A stretch of 64,000 bases of DNA from an uncultured Acidobacteriota bacterium (lineage in GTDB: Bacteria > Acidobacteriota > Thermoanaerobaculia > Gp7-AA8), in contig CAVUKB010000001.1 in NCBI GenBank assembly GCA_963741955.1, positions 32,001 through 96,000 of the forward strand. Direction: 5' to 3'. The first letter of the stretch is position 1. Each line of letters starts with the position of its first letter. The position numbers and the translations under genes are program-made. Of this stretch, positions 7,419-64,000 are shown one piece after another. Below the pieces are notes generated by a model, which was given only the letters and a program-made list of their open reading frames with translations, ran no database searches and was not told the DNA's origin.

Positions 7419-7466
7419 TCCCCCGACCCCCGGCCCCCGATCCCTGACCCCCGATCCCCGACCCCG
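7419..7466. repeat. degenerate heptamer tandem repeat (CCCCGAC/CCCCGAT-like)
   Basis: Read directly; lies immediately after the purC stop. Confidence 0.65.
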
Positions 7467-8570: not shown

Positions 8571-8640
8571 CCTCGCCTCTCGCCTCTCGCCTCTCGCCTC
8601 TCGCCTCTCGCCTCTCGCCTCTCGCCTCTCGCCTCTCGCC
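8571..8640. repeat. perfect heptamer microsatellite (CTCGCCT) x ~10
   Basis: Read directly; abuts the stop codon of the 8641-10689 gene. Confidence 0.9.
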
Positions 8641-10689
8641 TTACACGAAGACGTCGCCCTCGGGGAACGGGCTCTCCTGCGTCGGCTCGCGTCCCGCGTC
8701 GCCGTCCTTGCGTGCCTGCGCGGTCGCCCGGTGGTACTCCTGCCGCAGGTGGATCAGCAGAGGTTCGGAGAGCTTCATCACCTCGGCTTCCACTTCGTCC
8801 TTCCTGAACGGAGCGACCTCGGCCACCTCGATTTTCCCGAGCCCCTTCAGCGACACGGAGCCGATCAGCCGGATTCCGATCCAGTCGGCGGCGGCGCCGC
8901 TCGAGCTGATCCCGATGTAATTCGCCCACTCGGTTCGGAGCGACCACGTCTCTTGCCGCTCCTCGTCGATCTCCGATCCGAGCTGTTCGACCAGTGCAGC
9001 GGATGCGACGATTCCTTCGTTCACCAGATGTCCGTTCTGGTTGACGTAGGCGTAGAACCGCCTCGCATGCATCCGGTGGTCGACCAGGTCCACCTCGCTG
9101 GCGAGGGGCTCGAAGAAGCGGCGGACATCGCCGGGATCGTACCCGTGCGCGATGAGGAACGACTGGTACTCTTCGATCTCCTTGCTCGCCTTCCCCGTCG
9201 TCAGTCGCGAGAGCTCGACGATGCCGGGGCCGTAGAACTCCATGGTGTGCTCACTGGATGCACGAAGTGCCTTCATCGGGAGGAGCCGGTAATAACCGAA
9301 GTTCAGCGCGATCCTCAGACCACGGTTGAAAGCGAATCCCTTGTGGCGCATCTCCTCGTAGAATTGCTGAATCTCGACCGCTGCGCCGAGGAGACGGAGA
9401 GCGCGGCGGGTGGTGTAGAACGCGCCGTCGCCGAGAAACTTTTCGAACTGCAGATTGTGCCGTTCGGTGATCTTCAGCAGCGTGCGCTGGAACAGGAGCA
9501 TCTGGCGATAGGAGGTGACTTCCCCCTTCCGGCCGCTCCGCACGATCTCGCCGAGTGTCTCGGAGAATGCGGTGATGTCGTACATCAGCCCGAAACGGTA
9601 GACCATCGGGTCGACCACCCCGGCGCGACCGAAGTCGAGCGGCCGGGTGTTTCGGGAGTAGACGGTCGGGAGGGAACGATCGACCGGAACGGTCTCTCCG
9701 GTCGCGGTGGTGGTCATGAAGACGATCGCCCGCCGGAGCTGGTGCAGAATCGTGAAGCAGCCGAGTCTCCGGGCGAGGGCCTGCAACTGCTCACGCTCCT
9801 GAGAAGAGAGGACGGTGGCGACCGACGGCTGTCTGAAGAGGAACTGTTGAATCCTCGGGTCGAAGAGGATGGCGCTGTCGGCGCCGGCGGCCGGATCGAC
9901 GCCGAACAGAGCGAGTGCGGTGCGGGCAGTGGTATTGCGATCGAGGAGCTCGGCGGTTGCGTTCCGGAAGCGCTCCATCATCTCGCGGACCTGCTGGAAG
10001 TCGACGTGGGCGTATCCGTTGAGGAACGGTTTGAGCTCGCGCAGATCGGGTCCGATGAACTCCTCGGTGAAGATCAGGACGTTTTCCTGCAGCAGCCGGA
10101 AGAACCGCTCCCCACGCTCCTCGTCTCCGTCGAGCATCTTGTTCGCACGCCCCACCATCCGGCCGACGTGGTCGGACATCTCGCTCGCCCAGCGCGCGAA
10201 CGCGCGGTACTTGATCGCGTCCGCCTGAGTGCGGGCCGCCTGCGTGTCGATCGCTCCGATCCGTCTCGCGACGCTGGAGAACTGCCTCGAGACATCGAGT
10301 GAATGGGCGAGCCAGAAGACGGCGTGATAGTCGGCGAGAAGACTCGAGAGCATCGAGTTCTCGGCGAGTTTGACCGCCTGGATCGAGTACGCCTCCAGAG
10401 CCTGCTGGGAGCGTTCCTTCGAGTCGCTCTGCCGGAGCTGCCAGAGAATTTCTTCGTTGAGCCAGCGATCGAATCGGGTGTCGAGCTCCCGCAACGCGAT
10501 CGATTCACCGACCGGAAATCCGAGGGTGGGGGCCGCGAATTCGTCGGTGAAGAAGATCTTGTACGGAGTCGGGAGGATGTCCTCCGCCCGACCGAAGAGT
10601 TCCTCGATCGTCTTCTCCAGACCGGAAGAGAGGACGAACGGCGAGCCTTCCAGTTTCGGCTCGAGGTATTCGATCAGGGCGTCGCGCAT
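8641..10689 (-). CDS. protein with divergent class III adenylate/guanylate cyclase-like domain
   Basis: LMYDITAFS, FEKFLGDGAF, LRIALNFG and FYGPGIVELSRL match cyclase homology domain motifs in order. Confidence 0.6.
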   Translation of the reverse strand: MRDALIEYLEPKLEGSPFVLSSGLEKTIEELFGRAEDILPTPYKIFFTDEFAAPTLGFPVGESIALRELDTRFDRWLNEEILWQLRQSDSKERSQQALEAYSIQAVKLAENSMLSSLLADYHAVFWLAHSLDVSRQFSSVARRIGAIDTQAARTQADAIKYRAFARWASEMSDHVGRMVGRANKMLDGDEERGERFFRLLQENVLIFTEEFIGPDLRELKPFLNGYAHVDFQQVREMMERFRNATAELLDRNTTARTALALFGVDPAAGADSAILFDPRIQQFLFRQPSVATVLSSQEREQLQALARRLGCFTILHQLRRAIVFMTTTATGETVPVDRSLPTVYSRNTRPLDFGRAGVVDPMVYRFGLMYDITAFSETLGEIVRSGRKGEVTSYRQMLLFQRTLLKITERHNLQFEKFLGDGAFYTTRRALRLLGAAVEIQQFYEEMRHKGFAFNRGLRIALNFGYYRLLPMKALRASSEHTMEFYGPGIVELSRLTTGKASKEIEEYQSFLIAHGYDPGDVRRFFEPLASEVDLVDHRMHARRFYAYVNQNGHLVNEGIVASAALVEQLGSEIDEERQETWSLRTEWANYIGISSSGAAADWIGIRLIGSVSLKGLGKIEVAEVAPFRKDEVEAEVMKLSEPLLIHLRQEYHRATAQARKDGDAGREPTQESPFPEGDVFV

Positions 10690-26995: not shown

Positions 26996-27068
26996 CCGAG
27001 CCCCGAGCCCCGAGCCCCGAGTCTCGAGCCTCGAGCCTCGAACCTCGAGCCTCGAACCTCGAGCCCCG
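26996..27068. repeat. heptamer tandem repeat (CGAGCC[C/T]/CGAACCT) x ~10
   Basis: Read directly; between the convergent vapC and lysS stops. Confidence 0.85.
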
Positions 27069-27072
27069 CGCC

Positions 27073-28650
27073 TTATCGCGGCCGCATCAGCGGGAAGAGA
27101 ATGACATCCCGGATCGACGGCGAGTCGGTCAGGATCATCGCGATGCGGTCCATCCCGATTCCCTCGCCGGCGGTGGGCGGCATGCCGTACTGCAGCGCAC
27201 GCACGTAGTCCTCGTCCATCTGGTGTGCCTCGTCGTCGCCGTGGGCGCGCTCGCCCAGCTGCTGGAGGAACCGCCGCTCCTGCTCGTCCGGGTCGTTGAG
27301 CTCCGAGAACGCGTTCGCCACTTCCATCCCGCCGATGTAGAGCTCGAACCGCTCGACATACCGCGGATCGTCCTTCCTCTGCTTCGAGAGGGGGGAGACT
27401 TCCACCGGAAAATCGGTGATGAAGGTCGGTTCGATCAGAAACTCCTCGGCGAAGCTCTCGAAGATCTCCGCGATGATCTTCCCGTCGTTCATCTCTTCGA
27501 GCGGCGGCGCTCCGGCAGTGATCGGCCCTTCCGTCGCATCGGATTTCACATGACGCGGCTCGCCGTACCTGCGCGCGAGCTCGATCAGTGACGCGCGGTT
27601 CTCCAGCGACTGCGGATCGATGGTGATCTCCTTCCGCGCGGCGAAGTGGACGATGGCCTCCTTCATGGTGAAGCGGGCGAAGGGAGGAGTGAAGTCGATC
27701 TCATTGCCGCGGAAGGTGAGCCGGGTCGAGCGATGAATCTCCATCACCAGCCCCGCCAGGAGCGACTCGGTGAGGTTCATCAGGTCGCGGTAATCCGCGT
27801 ACGACTGGTAGAACTCGAGCATGGTGAACTCGGGATTGTGCCGGACCGAGATGCCTTCGTTGCGGAAATTGCGGTTGATCTCGTAGACGCGATCGAGCCC
27901 GCCCACGATCAGCCGCTTCAGATAGAGCTCCGGCGCGATGCGGAGATAGAGGTCGATGTCGAGCGTGTTGTGATGGGTGATGAACGGCCGTGCCGCCGCA
28001 CCTCCGGCCAGCGGCTGCATCATCGGCGTTTCCACCTCGATGTATCCCCGCGCGTCGAAGAAGTTGCGGATGAAGCGGATCATCTGCGCCCGAATCTCGA
28101 ACGTCCGCTTCACGTCGTCATTGACGATCAGATCGAGGTATCTCTGCCGGTATCTCTGCTCCAGGTCGGTCAGTCCGTGCCATTTCTCGGGAAGAGGACG
28201 GAGCCCCTTCGCGAGAAATCCGAGGTTCGAGGCCTTGATCGAAAGCTCGCCCTTCCGGGTCCGGAAGACCGTTCCCTCGACGGAGATCCAGTCGCCGATG
28301 TCGAGGTTCTCGTACAGAGTCCACTCGTTTTCCGGGATCGAATCCTTCCGGCAATAGACCTGAATCCGCGCCATCCTCTCCGACAGATCGAGGAACGAGG
28401 TCTTCCCGTGGTGGCGGATGGTCATCACGCGTCCGGCGATCTTCACCTGCCGCGGATTCGCTTCGAGCACCTCTGCGGTCTGTCCCGCATGCGTCTCGAC
28501 CACCTCCGCGATGGTGGTGTCGGTCTCGGCCCTGGTAGGGTACGGGTCGAACCCGGCGTCCACGATGCGGGCGAGCTTCTCTCGCCGGATGCGAATCAGT
28601 TCGCTTTCCGGCGTTTCGGATGTCGGATCGGGTGCGTGTTCGTCGGACAC
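27073..28650 (-). CDS. lysS: lysine--tRNA ligase (class II)
   Basis: [57 protein letters not shown]. Confidence 0.97.
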
Positions 28651-30068: not shown

Positions 30069-30123
30069 TCGCCCCTCGCCCCTCGCCCCTCGCCCCTTGC
30101 CCCTTGCCCCTCGCCTCTCGCCT
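30069..30123. repeat. heptamer tandem repeat (TCGCCCC) x ~8
   Basis: Read directly; inverted GGGGCGA-type copies at ~29945-29975. Confidence 0.85.
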
Positions 30124-39292: not shown

Positions 39293-39422
39293 GGTTATCT
39301 GTTATCTGTTATCTGTTATCGAATATCTGCGGTCTGGCCTCTGTCCGGTTGCAATCCGGGAGCCGATGCTGTTCCTTCGCTTCTATTGAATTCAAAATCT
39401 GAAATTCGAAATCCCCGGTCAC

Positions 39423-39690
39423 AGATCCTCGATCCACGATCCACGATGCCTTTCAGATCCTCGATCCTCGATCCGCAATGCCTTTCAGATCCTCGATCCT
39501 CGATCCGCAATGCCTTTCAGATCCTCGATCCGCGATCCTCGATCTACGATGCCTTTCAGATCCTCGATCCTCGATCCTCGATCCTCGATCCACAATGCCT
39601 TTCAGATCCCCGATCCGCGATCCGCGATCCACGATCCACGATGCCTTTCAGATCCTCGATCTCAGATCCTCGATCTCAGATGCTTTTTCA
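39423..39690. repeat. compound tandem array: ATGCCTTTCAG anchor plus 3-5 ATCCTCG-type heptamers, 7 anchors
   Basis: Anchors at 39446, 39478, 39510, 39549, 39595, 39641 and 39680; spacings 32/32/39/46/46/39 = 11+7n. Confidence 0.88.
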
Positions 39691-49113: not shown

Positions 49114-50712
49114 ATGTGGAGATGGATAACCCGCGGCCTGATGTTGAGTTGCCTACTGGCGCTCCTCACGCCTGTGCTCTCTGCGCAGACGTTCGCAGGA
49201 TTCATAGAGAAGCCCGCCGAAGGGGCCACCGTTTCCGGAATGGTGCTCGTTCAGGGGTGGGCGATCGACCAGCAGCAGATCTCGAAGGTGGATCTGTTCG
49301 TGGACGATCAGTTCCAGCACTCGGCGGAGATCAATCTGCCTCGAGTGGACATCATCGAGGCGAACCCGACCTGGCCCGGAATCCAGAGCAAGCTCCCCGG
49401 ATTCCAGACCGGCTTCCTCGCCAGTCGCTTCTCGAACGGACCCCACACGGTCCACGTGATGGTCACCACGAGTGACAATCAGACCTACGAGGTGGGGCGT
49501 CGCACGGTCACGGTCGACAACACGATCAACCAGCCTCCGTTCGGCTTCGTCGAGACGCCGGATACGTCGTCGATCGTGGATACCGTCGGATCGTTCCCGG
49601 TGAGCGGATGGGTGACGGACACGGACGGGATCGACCACGTCGACGTTCTGGTGGACGACCTGAATCTGCAGGGCGCGGTGTACGGCGACGCGAGACCAGA
49701 CGTCTCGAACTCCTTTCCGGATTTCCCCGCCGCGATGTTCAGCGGCTTCGTAGCGTTCGTCGACACCACCCGGATCCAGGATGGTGTTCACACCCTCTCG
49801 ATCCGCGCCACTGACAGGCAGGGACTCTCGCGGGTGATCGGGAAGCGGAACATCCAGGTGTACAACACCGAGAACCAGCTCCGGCCATTCGGACACGTCG
49901 ACCAGCCGCTCAGGGATGCGGTGCTCTACGGCAACTGCGCGAGCGCGGCGCCGCCGATCTCGCCGGTTCCGGCCAGCCCGGGGAACCACATCACACCGGT
50001 CACCGGATGGACTCTCGATCTCGGCCACCGTGCCGATCTCGGCCGCGTCTCGTACGTCGAGCTCATGGTCGACGGAGTGCCGTGGTACTCGAGCGATCAG
50101 TGCGGCTACTACAAGGACTTCGGCGGCTTCGTGAACTGCTACGGCCTCCCGCGGTTCGACGTGGCGCGGCTGTATCCGAACTACCCCGACTCTCCGCGCT
50201 CCGGCTTCATGTTCACCCTCGACGTCGCGACACTCATGACGATGGGCGTTCCGGCCGGACATCACACGCTCAAAGTGCGCGTCGGTGATCAGGAGCAGAC
50301 GTTCGCGGACATTCCCGACACTTCGGGGATTCCGGTCTTCTTCACCTGCACCAACAGCGAGTTCTTCGACTTCGCATCGCTCGGCTACATCGACTTCCCG
50401 CACTCGATGGACTACGTGAAGGGAACCATCGATCTCACGGGATGGGCGATCGACGAGAACGCCGGGGTGAGAACGGTCAAGATCATCATCGACGGCAACT
50501 ACATCGGGAACGCGCAGTACGGAATGGTGCGTACCGATGTCCAGTCGGCCTATCCCTTCATCAACGGGAGCAAGACCGCGGGCTGGCGCTTCACGCTCGA
50601 CACCACGCTGCTGAGCGACGCACGCCATCGGCTCACGGTGCAGACCATCGACGCGTTCGGCAACACGTCCGAGATCGGCTCGATGGACTTTTACGTCGAC
50701 AATCCGCAGTAG
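49114..50712 (+). CDS. secreted protein with four tandem Ig-like (Big-like) repeats
   Basis: Signal peptide; four repeats of G[FHY][IV][ED]xP...GW[AVT]xD...RxD[VI]...P...G[FW]; GGAGGT RBS. Confidence 0.8.
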   Translation: MWRWITRGLMLSCLLALLTPVLSAQTFAGFIEKPAEGATVSGMVLVQGWAIDQQQISKVDLFVDDQFQHSAEINLPRVDIIEANPTWPGIQSKLPGFQTGFLASRFSNGPHTVHVMVTTSDNQTYEVGRRTVTVDNTINQPPFGFVETPDTSSIVDTVGSFPVSGWVTDTDGIDHVDVLVDDLNLQGAVYGDARPDVSNSFPDFPAAMFSGFVAFVDTTRIQDGVHTLSIRATDRQGLSRVIGKRNIQVYNTENQLRPFGHVDQPLRDAVLYGNCASAAPPISPVPASPGNHITPVTGWTLDLGHRADLGRVSYVELMVDGVPWYSSDQCGYYKDFGGFVNCYGLPRFDVARLYPNYPDSPRSGFMFTLDVATLMTMGVPAGHHTLKVRVGDQEQTFADIPDTSGIPVFFTCTNSEFFDFASLGYIDFPHSMDYVKGTIDLTGWAIDENAGVRTVKIIIDGNYIGNAQYGMVRTDVQSAYPFINGSKTAGWRFTLDTTLLSDARHRLTVQTIDAFGNTSEIGSMDFYVDNPQ

Positions 50713-50734
50713 CTGTGTGAACCTCCTGGACCCG

Positions 50735-50768
50735 AAAGACCCGGTCCCAGGGCCGGGTCTTTTGTTTT
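50735..50768 (+). terminator. intrinsic terminator
   Basis: AAAGACCCGG...CCGGGTCTTT followed by a T-rich tail. Confidence 0.8.
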
Positions 50769-50846
50769 CTGAAGACGAATGCAGAATGCAGAATGCAGAG
50801 TGCAGAATTCAGAATTGAGAAGTGAGTCGAGGCGGCTGTCGTCCCT

Positions 50847-53800
50847 GCATGTTCTCCCGTCAGCCGAAGCTCGTGGCTCTCGCGCGGCCTCACCCTCTCC
50901 ACGTCCGCACTCACGAACTTCAGCCGAGGACCGAGGTTCGGGGAGAGGGCAGGGTGAGGGGCAACCCTGAAAGTTGATCTCGCAGATCTCGCCTCTCGCA
51001 CGTTCTCCCGTCAGCCGAAGCTCACTGCTCTCGCGCGGCCTCACCCTCTCCACGTCCGCACTCACGAACTTCAGCCGAGGACTGAGGTTCGGGGAGAGGG
51101 CAGGGTGAGGGGCAACCCTGAAAGTTGATCTCGCAGATCATGCCTCTCGCACATTGTCCCGTCAGCCGAAGCTCACTGCTCTCGCGCGGCCTCACCCTCT
51201 CCACGTCCGCACTCATGAACTTCAGCCGAGGACCGAGGTTCGGGGAGAGGGAAGGGTGAGGGGCAAGCCTGAAAGTTGATCTCGCAGATCATGCCTCTCG
51301 CACGTTCTCCCGTCAGCCGAAGCTCACTGCTCTCGCGCGGCCTCACCCTCTCCACGTCCGCACTCACGAACTTCAGCCGAGGACCGAGGTTCGGGGAGAG
51401 GGAAGGGTGAGGGGCAACCCTGAAAGTTAGTCTCGCAGATCGTGCCTCTCGCACGTTGTCCCGTCAGCCGAAGCTCCCCGCTCTCGCGCGGCCTCACCCT
51501 CTCCACGTCCGCACTCATGAACTTCAGCCGAGGACCGAGGTTCGGGGAGAGGGAAGGGTGAGGGGCAACCCTGAAAGTTGATCTCGCAGATCGTGCCTCT
51601 CGCACGTTGTCCCGTCAGCCGAAGCTCCCCGCTCTCGCGCGGCCTCACCCTCTCCACGTCCGCACTCATGAACTTCAGCCGAGGACCGAGCTTCGGGGAG
51701 AGGGAAGGGTGAGGGGCAAGCCTGAAAGTTGATCTCGCAGATCATGCCTCTCGCACGTTGTCCCGTCAGCCGAAGCTCCCCGCTCTCGCGCGGCCTCACC
51801 CTCTCCACGTCCGCACTCATGAACTTCAGCCGAGGACCGAGGTTCGGGGAGAGGGAAGGGTGAGGGGCAACCCTGAAAGTTAGTCTCGCAGATCATGCGA
51901 TCACACATCGCGCCGTTCTCACGGTTCATCGCCACACGTTGCCAAGCGTTCTTCCCCTCACCCCCTGGCCCCTCTCCCCGAATTGCGATTTCGGGCTGAA
52001 GTTGTTTCGTTACGGACGGGGAGAGGGGAGTGCGACCCTCGCGAGTGCGAATCGACTGCGGCTACGGGAGCGGACCCAAGATTCGGACATCTCTTAGCCC
52101 TCGCCCTCTCCACGTCCGCACTCACGAACTTCAGCCGAGGACCGAGTTTCGGGGAGAGGGAAGGGTGAGGGGCAACCCTGAAAGTTGATCTCGCAGATCT
52201 CGCCTCTCGCACGTTCTCCCGTCAGCCGAAGCTCGTGGCTCTCGCGCGGCCTCACCCTCTCCACGTCCGCACTCATGAACTTCAGCCGAGGGCCGAGGTT
52301 CGGGGAGAGGGAAGGGTGAGGGGCGACCCTGAAAGTTAGTCTCGCAGATCGTGCCTCTCGCACGTTGTCCCGTCAGCCGAAGCTCCCCGCTCTCGCGCGG
52401 CCTCACCCTCTCCACGTCCGCACTCATGAACTTCAGCCGAGGACCGAGGTTCGGGGAGAGGGAAGGGTGAGGGGCAACCCTGAAAGTTAGTCTCGCAGAT
52501 CGTGCCTCTCGCACGTTCTCCCGTCAGCCGAAGCTCGCGGTTCTCGCGCGGCCTCACCCTCTCCACGTCCGCACTCATGAACTTCAGCCGAGGGCCGAGG
52601 TTCGGGGAGAGGGAAGGGTGAGGGGCAACCCTGAAAGTTGATCTCGCAGATCTCGCCTCTTGCACGTTCTCCCGTCAGCCGAAGCTCGCGGTTCTCGCGC
52701 GGCCTCACCCTCTCCACGTCCGCACTCATGAACTTCAGCCGAGGACCGAGGTTCGGGGAGAGGGAAGGGTGAGGGGCAACCCTGAAAGTTGATCTCGCAG
52801 ATCATGCCTCTCGCACGTTCTCCCGTCAGCCGAAGCTCACTGCTCTCGCGCGGCCTCGCCCTCTCCACGTCCGCACTCACGAACTTCAGCCGAGGGCCGA
52901 GCTTCGGGGAGAGGGAAGGGTGAGGGGCAACCCTGAAAGTTAGTCTCGCAGATCGTGCCTCTCGCACGTTCTCCCGTCAGCCGAAGCTCCCCGCTCTCGC
53001 GCGGCCTCACCCTCTCCACGTCCGCACTCATGAACTTCAGCCGAGGACCGAGGTTCGGGGAGAGGGAAGGGTGAGGGGCAACCCTGAAAGTTGATCTCGC
53101 AGATCGTGCGATCACACATCGCGCCGTTCTCACGGTTCATCGCCACACGTTGCCAAGCGTTCTTCCCCTCACCCCCTGGCCCCTCTCCCCGAATTGCGAT
53201 TTCGGGCTGAAGTTGTTTCGTTACGGACGGGGAGAGGGGAGTGCGACCCTCGCGAGTGCGGATCGACTGCGGCTACGGGAGCGGACCCAAGATTCGGACA
53301 TCTCTTAGCCCTCGCCCTCTCCACGTCCGCACTCATGAACTTCAGCCGAGGACCGAGGTCGGGGAGAGGGAAGGGTGAGGGGCAACCCTGAAAGTTGATC
53401 TCGCAGATCATGCCTCTCGCACATTGTCCCGTCAGCCGAAGCTCGTGGCTCTCGCGCGGCCTCACCCTCTCCACGTCCGCACTCACGAACTTCAGCCGAG
53501 GACCGAGGTTCGGGGAGAGGGAAGGGTGAGGGGCAACCCTGAAAGTTAGTCTCGCAGATCGTGCGATCACACATCGCGCCGTTCTCACGGTTCATCGCCA
53601 CACGTTGCCAAGCGTTCTTCCCCTCACCCCCTGGCCCCTCTCCCCGAATTGCGATTTCGGGCTGAAGTTGTTTCGTTACGGACGGGGAGAGGGGAGGGCG
53701 ATCTTCGCGAGCGCGGATCGACTGCGGCTACGGGACGATCCAGGATTCAGGCGTTCCGTACATCTCACCCTCTCCACGTCCGCACTCATGAACTTCAGCC

Positions 53801-55413
53801 GAGGACCGAGGTCGGGGAGAGGGAAGGGTGAGGGGCAACCCTGAAAGTTAGTCTCGCAGATCATGCCTCTCGCACGTTCTCCCGTCAGCCGAAGCTCACT
53901 GCTCTCGCGCGGCCTCGCCCTCTCCACTTCCGCACTCACGAACTTCAGCCGAGGACCGAGGTTCGGGGAGAGGGAAGGGTGAGGGGCAACCCTGAAAGTT
54001 GCTCTCGCAGGTCATGCCATGACATATCGAGCCGTTCTTCCCCTCACCCCCTGGCCCCTCTCCCCGAATTGCGATTTCGGGCTGAAGTTGTTTCGTTACG
54101 GACGGGGAGAGGGGAGGGCGATCTTCGCGAGTGCGGATCGACTGCGGCTACGGGAGCGGACCCAAGATTCGGACATCTCGTAGCCCTCACCCTCTCCACG
54201 TCCGCACTCATGAACTTCAGCCGAGGACCGAGGTTCGGGGAGAGGGAAGGGTGAGGGGCAACCCTGAAAGTTGATCTCGCAGATCTCGCCATGACATATC
54301 GAGCCGTTCTTCCCCTCACCCCCTGGCCCCTCTCCCCGAATTGCGATTTCGCGCTGAAGTTGTTTCGTTACGGACGGGGAGAGGGGAGGGCGACCCTCGC
54401 GAGTGCGGATCGACTGCGGCTACGGGAGCGGACCGACACGTGATTCGAGTCGTTCCTGAATCACCGTCAGAATTCGGCGGATGGCGGTTGCAGGATCTCC
54501 GACAATCTCACGGTTCTCGAATCGGATCACCTGAACACCATGCTCGCCGAGCATCTCGGTACGCTTGTCGTCGCAGCGCCGAGCGATCTCCGTGAAGTGA
54601 GGATCGCCATCGAGTTCGATCGCCAGACGCAGGCGGACGCAATAGAAGTCGACGATGAAGTCGCCAATGCGATGTTGTCTTCGAAACTTGAAATCTTCGA
54701 GCCGACGGTCTCGCAGACATTTCCAGAGAGCTCGCTCTGCGTCCGTCTGATTCATCCGAAGTTCACGCTCGTTTTCGCGGCTGGCATTTCTCCGCTGAAA
54801 TCGCATCTCATCATCGTACCTCGGACACCAATTCTCCGCTCTCGCGCGGCCTCATGAACTTCAGCCGAGGACCGAGGTCGGGGAGAGGGAAGGGTGAGGG
54901 GCAACCCTGAAAGTTAGTCTCGCAGATCATGCGATCACACATCGCGCCGTTCTCACGGTTCATCGCCACACGTTGCCAAGCGTTCTTCCCCTCACCCCCT
55001 GGCCCCTCTCCCCGAATTGCGATTTCGGGCTGAAGTTGTTTCGTTACGGACGGGGAGAGGGGAGGGCGATCTTCGCGAGCGCGGATCGACTGCGGCTACG
55101 GGACGATCCAGGATTCAGGCGTTCCGTACATCTCACCCTCTCCACGTCCGCACTCATGAACTTCAGCCGAGGACCGAGGTCGGGGAGAGGGAAGGGTGAG
55201 GGGCAACCCTGAAAGTTAGTCTCGCAGATCATGCGATCACACATCGCGCCGTTCTCACGGTTCATCGCCACACGTTGCCAAGCGTTCTTCCCCTCACCCC
55301 CTGGCCCCTCTCCCCGAATTGCGATTTCGGGCTGAAGTTGTTTCGTTACGGACGGGGAGAGGGGAGGGCGACCCTCGCGAGTGCGGATCGACTGCGCCTT
55401 ACGGGAGCGGACC
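50847..55413. repeat. mosaic tandem array of 151-bp palindromic REP-like units (about 21 A cores) with 7 inverted B cores
   Basis: CCCTCTCCACGTCCGCAC anchor at 50893, 51044, 51195, 51346, 51497, 51648, 51799, then 52104 to 53010 every 151 bp; inverted cores at ~51953, 53165, 53620, 54040, 54312, 54988, 55290. Confidence 0.95.
54420..54806 (-). CDS. DUF559 / very-short-patch-repair-like endonuclease domain protein
   Basis: LRMNQTDAERALW, FKFRRQHRIGDFIVDFYC, LAIELDGDPH, DDKRTEML, VIRFEN. Confidence 0.9.
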   Translation of the reverse strand: MRFQRRNASRENERELRMNQTDAERALWKCLRDRRLEDFKFRRQHRIGDFIVDFYCVRLRLAIELDGDPHFTEIARRCDDKRTEMLGEHGVQVIRFENREIVGDPATAIRRILTVIQERLESRVGPLP

Positions 55414-56805
55414 AATATCGATCCGTGCTCCCGGCCATTCCTGAAGGACCGCGTTCTCCCCTGTCGCCAGCGCCGCGCCGACGATCCAGAGCGAGAGTGT
55501 GGGCTGACTGATGCGTGGGAACGTCCAGACGATGAGCTGCGTCGGTTCGTACGGAAGACGAAGGAAGTAGAGGTAGTAGGCTGCGAGGAGGCCGCCGCCC
55601 GCGATGACGTACGGAAGGAGAGTGCGAATGCGTCCCCGGAACACGAGCAGCGCGATCAACGGGACGAGCCACGCGAGCCAGTACGAGCCGGCCGGCATGT
55701 TCTCCAGGAGCGATCCGACGATCGGAATCGCGTTCCGCCAGTGGATTCCCCCTCCATACTCCCGTTGGGGATCGATGATTGGAATGTGCGCCAGGAGCTC
55801 GAGCGCAATCCACAGGCCGAGGCTCACTGCGGCAATCCCGAGGGATGTCGCCAGGGAAAGCCATTCCATCCGCCGGCGCTCGATCCACCGCTGGATCAGC
55901 GCCGCCGCGATGAACGCTCCGACAATGAGCACGCCCTCGGTTTTCGTGAGCAGCGCCCCGCCGAGGCAAACCCCTGCGACGGTGGCGGTGGAGACGTCGA
56001 AGCGCGTGGAGAAGAGAAGCACCGCAGCCACGGTGGCGAAAACCAGCAGTGGAGCCTCGGCGTTTCCCGCCGACCACGAATCAACGAGAGAGAGCGCGAT
56101 CGCAAGCGACCAGAACGCGGTGAACGCGGCAGCGACGCGTCGAGTGGAGATCTCCGACAGAATCGATTCGATGGTCACCGCGCCGGCAAAGAGCCAGATC
56201 GCCGGAACCGTCAGTCCGAGCGACCAGCTGTGGCGGCCGATCATTAGAGCCTGCCATCCGTAGACTGCGGGCACCAGTTGCGGATAGCTCGGATGCATGT
56301 GGACCGCGTACTCCCAGTTGAGGAATCGCGCGTCGAAACCGCCCGCGGCGACGAAACGGGCCGCTTTCGCTCCCCAGAAGAAGAGGTAATCCGCCGACGT
56401 GGCGTACGTCGAAAACCCGGCGATCGCGAGATAGACGACCGCTGCGACGGTCAGCAGCCATGCCCAGCGGGTGAGCGCGTCGACCGGCGGGATATCGAAT
56501 CGTGGTTCCGGCCTCTTCCTCCTCGCCAGGAGAATGCTGCCGGCCGAAGAGATCACGAGCAGCGGTATGCCGATGGAGGCAATCGACCAGCGAACGCCTG
56601 CGATCGAAAGGAGCGTCATCCACGAGGTGAGGACGACCGACCCTCCGAGAAACGCGAAACCGGCGCGAGCGACGATCGTTTTCGATCGCAGCACCGCAGT
56701 GAACGCGAGAGGTGCCCCGAAGGCCGCGATCGCGACATACGCGAGAATGAACCCCGTGAGCTCGCGCGCCATCATCGTCTCCGATAGACCGTTCCGAGGT
56801 CGCAA
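55399..56805 (-). CDS. polytopic membrane protein, possible GT-C glycosyltransferase (start may be ~56775)
   Basis: More than 10 TM segments; DYLFFWGAKA, HPSYPQLVP, LTKTEG. Confidence 0.7.
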   Translation of the reverse strand: MRPRNGLSETMMARELTGFILAYVAIAAFGAPLAFTAVLRSKTIVARAGFAFLGGSVVLTSWMTLLSIAGVRWSIASIGIPLLVISSAGSILLARRKRPEPRFDIPPVDALTRWAWLLTVAAVVYLAIAGFSTYATSADYLFFWGAKAARFVAAGGFDARFLNWEYAVHMHPSYPQLVPAVYGWQALMIGRHSWSLGLTVPAIWLFAGAVTIESILSEISTRRVAAAFTAFWSLAIALSLVDSWSAGNAEAPLLVFATVAAVLLFSTRFDVSTATVAGVCLGGALLTKTEGVLIVGAFIAAALIQRWIERRRMEWLSLATSLGIAAVSLGLWIALELLAHIPIIDPQREYGGGIHWRNAIPIVGSLLENMPAGSYWLAWLVPLIALLVFRGRIRTLLPYVIAGGGLLAAYYLYFLRLPYEPTQLIVWTFPRISQPTLSLWIVGAALATGENAVLQEWPGARIDIGPLP

Positions 56806-57203: not shown

Positions 57204-57503
57204 GGCGGCAGATGATACATCAGGGCAGAGGTTCGTTGGGCGCCGGAAGGCTTCGATTCGTTGGAAAGCGACGGAGACAGCGCCCCGGTTCAATCCTGAG
57301 GCGGCGAAGCTTCGGGATCGTGAAATTGCACAGCAGCGCGCGCGGCTCTCTCCATCGTTTCGGCCGCGCGATCGACGGCTATGGGACCGTGTGGCGCCGA
57401 CCGGGCAGCGCCGACCTCGAGGATCGTGCACTCGATGGGGAGCGACGCGGTTCGCTCGAAAGCCATGGTACCATGCACCGTTCATTCGAACCGCGGAACA
57501 AAA

Positions 57504-58448
57504 ATGGCCATTCGTTCGCTCCTCTCACGGACTCGAGGAAGGCTCGGGCGTCTCAAACGAAGAGTCCTGAATCAGCCGGTCGATGCCGTCGCCGTGGCGG
57601 CTGCGAATTTCTGGGATCAACAGTCCGTCAAGCAGTCGATGTACTGGGCCGAGTACCCACTCGTCCGGCAGTACGTGAACCATTGCGTGACTGGAGTGGA
57701 GTGGTTGTGGCCGTTGAGTGCTTTCAAGGTGGGCTGGGCGTACGAAGCATTTGAGCGAGGGCTCTCGATCGGATGCGGCACCGGGGCGCTCGAGCGTGCG
57801 GTGATGCATCTGAACATCTGCCATTCAATCGAGGGACTGGATGTTTCGAAATCCTCCATCCGGCAGGCACGGAACGAGGCCAGGCGGGAACGGATGCGAG
57901 CGATTCGGTACAGAGTCCGCGACTGTGATGCTCTGACCCTGGCTCCTTCTCGCTACGACGTCGTCTTCTTCCACGGGTCGCTCCACCACGTGAGCGATCC
58001 GGATCGACTCCTTGACGAAGTCGTGCGAGCGCTGAAGCCTCACGGGATGCTCTACGTCGACGAGTACGTCGGACCTTCCCGAGACGAGTGGTCGGACGAG
58101 CACCTCGCTCACGCGAGAAGCGCATTCGAATCGATTCCCGAGGAGCTGAAGCTCTGGCCGGTGAATCCTCCACTCGACTGGAGCGACCCTTCGGAGATGA
58201 TCCGCTCGAGCCGGATCCGCCCCGCAGTCGAATCGAGATTCGAGATCGTTCACTACAAGCCCTACTGGGGCAATCTCCTCTTCCCACTCTTGTCCGCGCT
58301 CGACGGCCACCTCATGACCGAACCTGCGAGAGCGGGGCTCGTGGAATCCCTGATTCAGAGGGAAAAGGAGCTGGTGGAATCGGGAGAGTTCGTCGACCCG
58401 CTGTTCGCGGTGATCGTCGCGCGCAAACGTTCCGGTTCGAATCCGTGA
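57504..58448 (+). CDS. class I SAM-dependent methyltransferase
   Basis: LSIGCGTG, GLDVS, YDVVFFHGSLHHV, LKPHG, EYVGP. Confidence 0.88.
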   Translation: MAIRSLLSRTRGRLGRLKRRVLNQPVDAVAVAAANFWDQQSVKQSMYWAEYPLVRQYVNHCVTGVEWLWPLSAFKVGWAYEAFERGLSIGCGTGALERAVMHLNICHSIEGLDVSKSSIRQARNEARRERMRAIRYRVRDCDALTLAPSRYDVVFFHGSLHHVSDPDRLLDEVVRALKPHGMLYVDEYVGPSRDEWSDEHLAHARSAFESIPEELKLWPVNPPLDWSDPSEMIRSSRIRPAVESRFEIVHYKPYWGNLLFPLLSALDGHLMTEPARAGLVESLIQREKELVESGEFVDPLFAVIVARKRSGSNP

Positions 58449-62472: not shown

Positions 62473-64000
62473 CTCCCCAGCGCGGCACTCGCTATTCATG
62501 GCACGCATCGCTCGCGGCGGGACGCCGCTCGAGTGGGTCGCGCCTCCGGGCGCGAGGCTCCCCGGCATCGTGCCGGGGAGCGATGGATGCAACCGAGCGG
62601 AGATCGTGCGGTTGATGAGTGCGCGGGTTACCGTCTCCCGCTCTCGGGAGGCACGGAGTTGCGGGGTAGACGCGATCTCTCCCAGCGGCGCGATCAGTGT
62701 TCATGGCACGCATCGCTCGCGGCGGGACGCCGCTCGAGTGGGTCGCGCCTCCGGGCGCGAGGCTCCCCGGCATCGTGCCGGGGAGCGATGGATGCAACCG
62801 AGCGGAGATCGTGCGGTTGATGAGCGCTCGTGATTGAGTCTCCCGCTCTCGGGAGGCACGGAGTTGCGGCGTAGACGCGATCTCTCCCAGCGGCACGATC
62901 AGTGTTCATGGCACGCATCGCTCGCGGCGGGACGCCGCTCGAGTGGGTCGCGCCTCCGGGCGCGAGGCTCCCCGGCATCGTGCCGGGGAGCGATGGATGC
63001 AACCGAGCGGAGATCGTGCGGTGGATGAGTGCTGGGGTTACCGTCTCCCGCTCTCGGGAGGCACGGAGTTGCGGCGTAACGCGATCTCTCCCAGCGGCAC
63101 GATCAGTGTTCATGGCACGCATCGCTCGCGGCGGGACGCCGCTCGAGTGGGTCGCGCCTCCGGGCGCGAGGCTCCCCGGCATCGTGCCGGGGAGCGATGG
63201 ATGCAACCGAGCGGAGATCGTGCGGTTGATGAGCGCTCGTGATTGAGTCTCCCGCTCTCGGGAGGCACGGAGTTGCGGCGTAACGCGATCTCTCCCAGCG
63301 GCACGATCAGTGTTCATGGCACGCATCGCTCGCGGCGGGACGCCGCTCGAGTGGGTCGCGCCTCCGGGCGCGAGGCTCCCCGGCATCGTGCCGGGGAGCG
63401 ATGGATGCAACCGAGCGGAGATCGTGCGGTTGATGAGTGCTGGGGTTACCGTCTCCCGCTCTCGGGAGGCACGGAGTTGCGGCGTAACGCGATCTCTCCC
63501 AGCGGCACGATCAGTGGTCATGGCACACATCGCTCGCGGCGGGACGCCGCTCGAGTGGGTCGCGCCTCCGGGCGCGAGGCTCCCCGGCATCGTGCCGGGG
63601 AGCGATGGATGCAACCGAGCGGAGATCGTGCGGTGGATGAGTGCGCGTGATTGGGTCTCCCGCTCTCGGGAGGCACGGAGTTGCGGGGTAGACGCGATCT
63701 CTCCCAGCGGCGCGATCAGTGTTCATGGCACGCATCGCTCGCGGCGGGACGCCGCTCGAGTGGGTCGCGCCTCCGGGCGCGAGGCTCCCCGGCATCGTGC
63801 CGGGGAGCGATGGATGCAACCGAGCGGAGATCGTGCGGTGGATGAGTGCTGGGGTTACCGTCTCCCGCTCTCGGGAGGCACGGAGTTGCGGCGTAACGCG
63901 ATCTCTCCCAGCGGCACGATCAGTGGTCATGGCACGCATCGCTCGCGGCGGTAAGCCGCTCGAGTGGGTCGCGCCTCCGGGCGCGAGGCTCCCCGGCATC
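62473..64000. repeat. 204-205-bp tandem array, at least 8 units, runs off the window end
   Basis: TCATGGCACGCATCGCTCGCGGCGG anchor at ~62495, 62700, 62905, 63109, 63313, 63517, 63722, 63926. Confidence 0.95.

Follow-up and report, generated by a model that had tools for sequence, protein, structure and literature searches.

The question raised by this locus is why a single gene for a small DUF559-type nuclease lies inside a long array of palindromic repeat units, and whether the gene and the repeats form one system. The locus occurs in a stretch of 64,000 nucleotides from an uncultured Acidobacteriota bacterium (Thermoanaerobaculia, Gp7-AA8; assembly GCA_963741955.1, contig CAVUKB010000001.1, positions 32,001 to 96,000), which we refer to as the window. 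The assembled array spans 50847-55413 of the window (~4.6 kb) and consists of 28 units, 21 in one orientation (A) and 7 inverted (B). A similar arrangement is familiar from repetitive extragenic palindromic (REP) sequences, palindromes of 20-40 bp that flank the gene of the HUH transposase RAYT (TnpA_REP). We propose that the DUF559 nuclease and its repeats form a partnership of the REP/RAYT kind that acts on DNA, and assign this explanation a probability of roughly 45%. A broader version, which we advance somewhat more cautiously, is that DUF559 proteins would be the cognate nucleases of BoxC/PIT-type triplex repeats. This would be a second, HUH-independent REP/RAYT-like symbiosis across Acidobacteriota, Pseudomonadota, Bacteroidota, Cyanobacteriota and others, in which a minimal Vsr-fold enzyme reading non-B DNA (hairpin or triplex) maintains and spreads the repeats and occasionally amplifies them into arrays.

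The layout of the array agreed with the original prediction, made from the sequence of the window alone, which had counted about 21 A and 7 B cores at a 151-bp period; pattern searches, anchors and Tandem Repeats Finder bore out both the numbers and the order. With up to three mismatches allowed, TTCGGGGAGAGGGNNNGGTGAGGGG was found 21 times, on the plus strand only and between 50937 and 55203 (0 predicted from 100 shuffles), and the two-block pattern GGGGAGAGGG-N0-12-GGGTGAGGG was found 28 times (21 plus, 7 minus), all within 50940-55315 and with 0 expected. The remainder of the 64-kb window gave no match to the two-block pattern. The order derived from anchors was A7-B-A7-B-A2-B-A2-B-A-B-[gene]-A*-B-A-B, where A* (54833-54901) lacks ~21 bp of its compact left arm due to a deletion between two CTCA words. 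The A-to-A spacing was exactly 151 bp in 14 cases, Tandem Repeats Finder reported 21.0 copies of period 151 at 50847-54018, and the 151-bp units were 93-100% identical among themselves. B is a diverged copy of A in inverted orientation, a relationship that had been noticed for the core and that extends to the entire unit. The A7-B block occurs twice at a spacing of 1211 bp (repeat family D6), and the 300-bp stretches 54878-55177 and 53510-53809, which flank the gene on either side, are 100% identical (family D7). These repeated blocks and identical stretches point to growth by segmental duplication.

The palindrome had been taken for a new element of its own, a view that we abandon. Judged from its sequence, the array core is a long-loop form of a known intrastrand-triplex motif, named BoxC, later PIT element and later TM_ECO, and known since the early 1990s (Holder 2015, PMC4666352). 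The core consists of a C-rich block, a loop, the G-rich complement of the first block, a spacer of 2-5 nt and another G-rich block, which is a mirror of the preceding one. In the published TM_ECO pattern, CCCTCNCCC-N3-6-GGGNGAGGG-N3-GGGNGAGGG (PMC4666352), blocks 2 and 3 are matched by the window cores GGGGAGAGGG-AA-GGGTGAGGGG and GGGGAGAGGGG-CCAGG-GGGTGAGGGG, which closely resemble TM_ECO no. 9. Mirror G blocks comparable to GGGNGAGGG-N3-GGGNGAGGG were present in 28 of 28 cores, all of which fit GGGGAGAGGG-N(2-5)-GGGTGAGGG, with a second loop of 2 nt in A and 5 nt in B, not 3. The C block, CCCTCTCC or CCCCTCTCCCC, was also present. Its distance to the G block, loop 1, is ~41-48 nt instead of the published 3-6 nt, which makes the window element a long-loop relative rather than a strict TM_ECO; with loop 1 allowed to reach 60 nt, 27 of the 28 cores passed a triplex detector. 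These 27 elements, all located in the array, were the only ones detected in the window. The window units are also intergenic and multi-copy and come in two inversely paired types. In E. coli K-12 there are 23 TM_ECO copies, and 3610 occur across 262 proteobacterial genomes; they are described as strictly intergenic, with five inverted pairs that each join one type A and one type B element, and with raised local rearrangement (PMC4666352). The consulted parts of that paper report no function, spreading mechanism or partner gene for TM_ECO, and no tie to mobile elements; Salmonella is given there as lacking TM_ECO.

The gene enclosed by the array (54420-54806, minus strand, 128 aa) fills one of the slots between units. 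It had been singled out as the only credible gene there, with an intact DUF559 motif, and this stood. The protein matched Pfam DUF559 (PF04480) with E=1.7e-33 and 115.2 bits (cut-off 20.6) and retained all 16 invariant columns of a 34-sequence alignment, including D53, E64, D66 and H70. Its sequence matched PDB entry 3hrl, a Neisseria DUF559 structure, with E=1.7e-17. An AlphaFold2 model (pLDDT, the model's own confidence score, 88.8) retrieved 3hrl (5.7e-7) and 3r3p, the catalytic domain of I-Bth0305I (7e-5), in Foldseek, with a weak match to E. coli Vsr (1vsr, E=0.1). On the basis of this model the window protein has a Vsr-like PD-(D/E)XK nuclease fold. Pfam families found on the protein were DUF559 and MTES_1575 only, with no match to the Vsr family; the YcjD-type DUF559 model of NCBIfam matched below threshold, and padloc defence profiles gave nothing meaningful (best E=0.0016). 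One search with the window protein returned 2313 relatives, the closest with 58-59% identity. The window's own copy was not returned, whereas the RarA protein of the window was returned at 100%, so the DUF559 gene may be uncalled in the source annotation. All other open reading frames (ORFs) in the array simply read through the repeat. For one of these, at 52131-52514 on the minus strand, a protein search returned no homologue, and the exact unit was not seen as a predicted ORF elsewhere.

The -10-like hexamer TACGAT was located 6 nt before the ATG as predicted (54813-54818, minus strand). It is part of the word CCGAGGTAnnnT, which stands 6-8 nt before the start in seven acidobacterial relatives (loci L001, L002, L003, L005, L006, L011 and L045). 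This recurrent placement suggests that transcription begins downstream of the neighboring repeat and yields a leaderless transcript. A consensus promoter scan of 50600-55600 found no sigma-70-like site, also not at TACGAT, and the single convincing terminator in this region was that of the upstream gene (50733-50764).

To establish how general the combination is, we used 80 loci with DUF559 relatives that share 36-59% identity with the window protein. They were retrieved with a 10-sequence alignment and span Acidobacteriota, Pseudomonadota, Bacteroidota, Ignavibacteriota, Nitrospirota, Chloroflexota, Cloacimonadota, a candidate-phylum Uhrbacteria genome and others. Each of 81 sources carried exactly one DUF559 domain. 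The original prediction had named co-occurrence of core and gene in related loci as a check, and such co-occurrence was indeed found: four exact 9-mers occurred at 2.30/kb within 400 bp of the DUF559 gene and at 0.069/kb more than 1 kb away, with at least one of the four near the gene in 27 of the 80 loci. When triplex-type elements were counted with a sequence-agnostic detector, densities were 2.08/kb within 300 bp of the gene and 0.045/kb beyond 1 kb, a 47-fold difference. An element lay within 300 bp of 41 of the 80 DUF559 genes, compared with 23 of 611 control ORFs of the same loci (4 of 168 for small ORFs). The flanks are also related to each other. For 300-bp flanks, an exact reverse-complement match of at least 12 nt was present in 45 of 73 loci and in 8 of 360 random controls, and one of at least 14 nt in 33 of 73 loci and 2 of 360 controls; the other 7 of the 80 loci were skipped due to short flanks.

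The usual layout is block 1, loop, block 2 and block 3, then the gene, followed by the reverse complement of the same. In 49 of the 67 nearest elements the third block pointed toward the gene; of the 26 loci with elements on two sides, 17 showed this orientation on both. The window gene sits in such a slot between units, although its upstream neighbor is the truncated A*. Among eight more distant homologues from a plasmid collection, hairpin-plus-G-box elements were recognized in 8 by eye and in 5 by the detector. Among the 120 best homologues, many have an N- or C-terminal tail, for example SLSRLRERAGVRA or HPHPNPLPQAGEG, that is the translation of such blocks. The inverted repeats around these genes fit with the report of Milman et al. 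2023 (PMC9881135), in which the annotation 'DUF559 domain-containing protein' was 14.3-fold enriched among predicted targets of programmed inversion. Few DUF559 relatives were found on plasmids (32 of 72,556 records) or in phages (2 of 50,697). A contig end was closer than 500 bp for 18 of the 80 genes, with 5.75 expected; this threefold excess at contig breaks implies that these genes are under-represented in short-read assemblies.

Gene and element type also co-vary. Three element classes recurred near DUF559 genes, GGGAGAGGG with GGGTGAGGG, GGGAGAAGG with GGATGAGGGG, and AGGAGGGG with GGGGTGGTT. In all three, block 3 mirrors block 2 in antiparallel orientation, A being matched by either A or T. 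Of the asymmetric hairpins near DUF559 genes (270 in total), 78 had a third block that was a mirror copy and 33 one that was a direct copy. When the motif classes were placed on a quick protein tree, 21 changes were required, compared with a mean of 44.4 after shuffling. DUF559 proteins of Blastocatellia and Pyrinomonadaceae (Acidobacteriota) that come with the Bacteroidota-type element group among the Bacteroidota proteins, and proteins with the first element class from Cloacimonadota, Chloroflexota and alphaproteobacteria fall among those of Lysobacteraceae. The deep branches of this tree are weakly supported because the alignment has only 129 columns. From these sequence comparisons the DUF559 gene and its flanks appear to travel or evolve together.

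The same combination exists in E. coli. The K-12 gene ycjD, a model DUF559 gene, ends in CACCCTCTCCC, and ~170 nt downstream lies CCCTCGCCCCTCTGGGGAGAGGGTTAGGGTGAGGGG, which is TM_ECO no. 9 in Table 1 of Holder 2015 (PMC4666352). At the level of megablast, ycjD was present in 3378 of 5426 complete E. coli genomes and absent from 2048. A 61-nt query around CCCTCGCCCCTCTGGGGAGAGGGTTAGGGTGAGGGG found a median of 18 places per E. coli genome. Among 60 genomes sampled evenly across the collection, those with ycjD (n=37) had a median of 19 TM places (range 11-27) and those without (n=23) a median of 5 (range 1-16), with a Mann-Whitney p of 6.5e-10 that is uncorrected for shared ancestry. K-12 (locus L081, NC_000913.3) has a 39-nt duplicate of the ycjD 3' end at 48-87 nt beyond the gene, with 35 of 39 positions identical and a score of 58 (shuffle maximum 27). 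The order after ycjD is the 39-nt duplicate followed by TM_ECO no. 9, and a perfect 16-bp inverted repeat, CACCTCATTCTGACAA..TTGTCAGAATGAGGTG, precedes ycjD and overlaps its start (L081, 5150-5840).

Elements without a gene show the same arrangement. Gene-less doublets with the topology described above were found at two loci (L006, 9392-9543, and L018, 5247-5729), and four of the five inverted pairs of E. coli K-12 have it as well. Arrays beside DUF559 genes also recur. In Photobacterium sp. GJ3 (L089, NZ_CP073579.1, 3316-4977) 14 elements make up a ~1.66-kb array of inverted triplex-type doublets that begins 4 bp past the DUF559 match; its period of 142-148 bp is near the 151 bp of the window, and its sequence is unrelated. 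In N. gonorrhoeae (L088, NZ_CP119142.1, 3419-4278) a 281-bp unit is repeated 3.1 times, 92 bp downstream of a DUF559 gene of the NGO0050 type, and each unit contains a GA-rich triplex-type element, CCTCTCTCCC-TGT-GGGAGAGAG-CT-AGAGAGAGGG. The latter record is filed as a plasmid, yet measures 2.17 Mb. Four units of ~68 bp lie beside the DUF559 gene of an Arenimonas locus (L073). Two metagenome-assembled genomes of Thermoanaerobaculia have apparently orthologous loci with near-identical DUF559 proteins, preceded by one hairpin unit in L005 and three in L006, a difference that indicates rapid gain or loss of units.

Together these observations suggest that DUF559 is an unrecognised partner of triplex-type repeats. 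The repeat class and the nuclease family were each known, and their pairing is apparently unpublished: no report of a DUF559-BoxC/PIT/TM pairing was found in the open full-text literature, a search to which subscription papers are out of reach, and the words endonuclease, nuclease, ycjD, fabI and DUF are absent from the main text of Holder 2015 (PMC4666352). In the mechanism that we propose, gene and repeats would be one co-inherited module, in which the gene of this DUF559 clade is usually bracketed by inverted units. The protein would recognize the elements as DNA, either by sequence or as the hairpin or triplex of a single strand, and bind or nick them. Binding or nicking would sustain and spread the repeat family, in the manner of RAYT and REP/REPIN. 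The master copy would be the gene together with its inverted flanks, with gene-less copies and doublets lying elsewhere. A long array such as that of the window would have grown by slippage and unequal recombination among units.

Several points weigh against this partnership. The original idea of a non-HUH, Vsr-like nuclease tied to its own palindromes gained the association in many phyla, the co-variation with the protein tree and the E. coli copy numbers; contact of the protein with the repeats, be it recognition or cleavage, and the direction of cause are wholly inferred. By the detector 39 of the 80 loci had no element, and 28 of 73 lacked a flank match of at least 12 nt. Topology is not uniform either. 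The remaining inverted pair of E. coli K-12 is oriented the opposite way, and so is the locus on a Synechocystis sp. B12 plasmid (L084, 2900-3400), where the third blocks point away from the DUF559 gene; toxin-antitoxin and DUF1156 genes surround it. In E. coli, ycjD is accompanied by a TM element on just one side. The difference in E. coli copy number is uncorrected for phylogeny, and the ranges overlap (up to 16 without ycjD, 11-27 with it). In an O157:H7 strain without ycjD (L082, NZ_CP066753.1, 2641-5264), a TetR regulator and a resistance-nodulation-division (RND) efflux operon occupy the place beside fabI that ycjD has in K-12, which indicates that the gene was replaced at this locus; one gene of the efflux operon is frameshifted. 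According to the consulted parts of Holder 2015 (PMC4666352), single-stranded TM_ECO forms a triplex in vitro, but no stable triplex was detectable in vivo; no functional class stands out among neighboring genes, the earlier work of Bergler 1992 and Hoyne 2000 is cited there for gene function being uncorrelated with the element, and neither promoter nor terminator activity had been seen. Finally, as far as the consulted parts of the report on Caulobacter VsrA go (PMC12907096), this only DUF559 protein with genetics is linked to cytosine methylation and not to repeats.

An alternative is that the protein is a free-standing endonuclease of the homing type. It would cut the center of an inverted doublet, and repair from a gene-bearing copy would insert the gene between the third blocks, with the repeats spreading by other means. 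The placement of the gene fits, as gene-less doublets hold just 16-60 nt where the gene is found. The structural relative I-Bth0305I (3r3p in Foldseek) is a homodimeric homing endonuclease with a pseudopalindromic site (PMC3239194, consulted in part). The 39-nt fragment of the ycjD 3' end resembles what a cycle of invasion and decay leaves behind, and one type of B-to-A junction in the window keeps ~22 nt that resemble the 3' end of the gene, a weak match. We nevertheless consider homing unlikely. Every source has a single DUF559 domain despite gene-less doublets nearby, and in the window 27 gene-less slots lie beside the gene. The window protein consists of the catalytic domain alone and lacks the additional DNA-binding region that I-Bth0305I has, and fewer repeats in genomes without the gene are not what homing predicts.

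We judge it similarly improbable that DUF559 is a housekeeping, Vsr-like nuclease for repair or structure processing, around which repeats gather independently, for example as recombination-prone DNA or as insulators of a potentially toxic gene. In favor of such a role, the DUF559-domain protein VsrA of Caulobacter triggers the SOS response once its partner cytosine methyltransferase is deleted (PMC12907096), rearrangement at TM loci is unusually common among E. coli strains (PMC4666352), both as stated in the consulted parts of these papers, and the rarity of DUF559 on plasmids and in phages agrees with it. It fits less well with the low frequency of elements at other ORFs of the same loci, small ones included, with the preferred bracket topology, and with a motif type that tracks the protein tree across phyla. 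Moreover, no DNA cytosine methyltransferase family turned up when 42 long ORFs of the window and four neighboring ORFs were scanned with Pfam.

The suggestion in the original prediction that a transcript of the array is cut into structured RNAs of ~151 nt, for instance an antitoxin-like RNA as in type III toxin-antitoxin systems, we regard as very improbable. Tandem repeats adjoining a nuclease gene do recall ToxIN-like layouts, and the 75-nt core folded slightly better than shuffles (z -1.85 and -2.16). Full 150-nt units folded no better than shuffles (z 0.17 and -0.32). The RNA and DNA folding programs model Watson-Crick and G-U pairs only, with triplexes outside their scope, and z-scores between +0.17 and -2.16 are so weak that folding energy alone is no evidence. 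Rfam in gathering mode found two tRNAs only, and in E-value mode five sub-threshold, microRNA-like matches on the array, taken as chance. The absence of an Rfam family, the poor folding, the lack of a promoter-like site in the array, the presence of units that flank the gene left and right and point in both directions, and a motif structure specific to DNA make the RNA reading weak; the introduction of Holder 2015 states that RNA does not form purine-motif triplexes (PMC4666352). The stems are conserved as sequence, the protein fold is that of a DNA nuclease, and a -10-like element lies between the repeat and the ATG. A type III toxin-antitoxin system proper, in which a tandem RNA repeat immediately precedes an endoribonuclease toxin gene and shares its orientation, was rejected as a candidate in view of the placement and orientations of the units, the DNA-nuclease fold and the padloc result. 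Even less probable is an array that arose in assembly, or a simple satellite in which the gene lies by chance. Near-identical 151-bp units are indeed hard to assemble, and homologous genes lie close to contig ends more often than expected, but the units differ by scattered substitutions and follow an ordered higher-order pattern, the RarA of the window is recorded on a 513-kb contig, and the same layout of gene plus array occurs in independent genomes.

We return to the partnership of nuclease and repeats and the detailed layout of its array in the window, for which the block boundaries are approximate. A units 1-7 (50847-51899, plus) follow the 151-bp period with anchors at 50940, 51091, 51242, 51393, 51544, 51695 and 51846, and each consists of the compact C-rich arm CCTCACCCTCTCC, a loop of ~41 nt and GGGGAGAGGG-(C/A)A-GGGTGAGGGG. 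B unit 1 (51900-52098, minus) has its core, part of a diverged inverted A unit, at 51954-52035. A units 8-14 (52099-53110, plus) and B unit 2 (53111-53309, minus, core 53165-53246) duplicate the first A7-B block. Next come A units 15-16 (53310-53565, plus), B unit 3 (53566-53761, minus, core 53620-53701), which has the second variant of the junction, A units 17-18 (53762-54018, plus), B unit 4 (54019-54190, minus, core 54040-54121), A unit 19 (54191-54290, plus) and B unit 5 (54291-54434, minus, core 54312-54393), into whose flank the final codons of the DUF559 gene extend. Beyond the gene lie A*, which is unit 20 (54833-54934, plus), B unit 6 (54935-55136, minus, core 54988-55069), A unit 21 (55137-55236, plus) and B unit 7 (55237-55413, minus, core 55290-55371). 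The array occupies the gap between two convergent genes. On the left an Ig-domain protein gene ends at 50712, followed by the terminator-like hairpin mentioned above; on the right B unit 7 abuts the 3' end of a membrane-protein ORF (55399-56805, minus).

Two other interpretations of array features were rejected. A CRISPR array does not apply, as the entire 151-bp unit recurs and there are no unique spacers. Derivation of the gene-less B-to-A junctions by deletion of the gene was too weakly supported, with ~22 gapped nt resembling the gene 3' end in one junction type and only ~9 nt shared with its 5' flank in another. Patterns of the G-quadruplex (G4) type were 13-fold enriched near DUF559 genes, and 21 of the 24 on the plus strand of the window lie inside the array; they reflect the same G blocks and hence are no separate evidence.

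The window otherwise represents ordinary chromosome, with genes for pyrimidine synthesis, a tRNA synthetase, mreBC, penicillin-binding protein 2 (PBP2) and initiation factor IF3. The RarA protein is 76-78% identical to proteins of Thermoanaerobaculia metagenome-assembled genomes. The Pfam scan found no transposase, integrase or RAYT/Y1 family among the 42 long ORFs, and the only methyltransferase was of the class I S-adenosylmethionine type (57381-58448, plus). A second tandem array, of ~69% G+C, starts at 62495 and extends to 64000 and past the window end, with a period of 204 or 409 bp (7.4 or 3.7 copies, 95-98% matches). Each of its units has a hairpin, CTCCCCGGCA-TCG-TGCCGGGGAG; triplex-type elements were not found in it, and its long ORFs had no Pfam match. 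Heptamer microsatellites were present at 7420-7465, 8572-8641, 26997-27073, 30069-30122, 39422-39687 and 50777-50815, the last just ahead of the DUF559 array. The heptamers seen were CCCCCGA x6.6, CTCGCCT x10, CGAGCCT x11, TCGCCCC x7.7, a compound GATCCTC-based tract and GAATGCA x5.6, the latter in the tract ahead of the array. Such a density is unusual for 64 kb of bacterial chromosome.

If the partnership exists, both the BoxC/TM elements and DUF559 would acquire a testable function in E. coli K-12, through ycjD and the 23 TM_ECO copies. It would be a second case, alongside REP/RAYT, of a nuclease that lives with its own repeats, and the protein would be a natural reader of hairpin or triplex DNA. 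DUF559 is a very large family, for which Caulobacter VsrA is the sole genetic lead so far as the consulted parts of its report go (PMC12907096).

Compared with known systems, the window protein shares a nuclease superfamily with Vsr and with Caulobacter VsrA, which has a DUF559 domain (PMC12907096). A Vsr-family match and linkage to a C5-cytosine methyltransferase, as expected for Vsr, were both lacking in the Pfam scan of the window ORFs. The EDxHD enzyme I-Bth0305I also has a Vsr-like catalytic fold and provides a precedent for a selfish gene with a pseudopalindromic target; it carries N-terminal NUMOD DNA-binding regions and resides in a group I intron in a phage recA gene (PMC3239194, consulted in part). 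The window protein, in contrast, is a bare polypeptide of 128 aa with no N-terminal DNA-binding region, and its context is an intergenic array rather than an intron or intein.

The closest relative of the repeat is BoxC/TM_ECO. Both have three blocks (C-rich, G-rich complement and mirror G-rich), with near-identical sequences GGGGAGAGGG..GGGTGAGGGG, and both are intergenic and multi-copy, with two sequence types that are inversely paired and tied to local rearrangement. Loop 1 differs (~41-48 nt in the window, 3-6 nt in published TM_ECO), as does loop 2 (2 or 5 nt versus 3). The window units have conserved leaders and trailers of ~40 nt and form a 28-unit tandem array, whereas E. coli BoxC elements are dispersed singles and pairs.

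REP elements are marked by a GTAG or CGTC tag, according to the consulted parts of PMC3733652. The window cores start with CCTCACCC or CCCCTCACCC, have a third, mirror block and lack such a tag. The flanked gene differs as well, encoding a Vsr-like DUF559 protein of the PD-(D/E)XK type and not an HUH-Y1 transposase. To our knowledge, no transposition chemistry has been described for the family of Vsr-like folds. In other respects the window resembles REP and its composite BIME form: mosaic arrays of two variants in both orientations, and a chromosomal location with rare occurrence on plasmids and phages. Like REP/RAYT, the module consists of a single-copy nuclease gene with inverted, short palindromic flanks, accompanied by dispersed singlets and doublets that have no gene.

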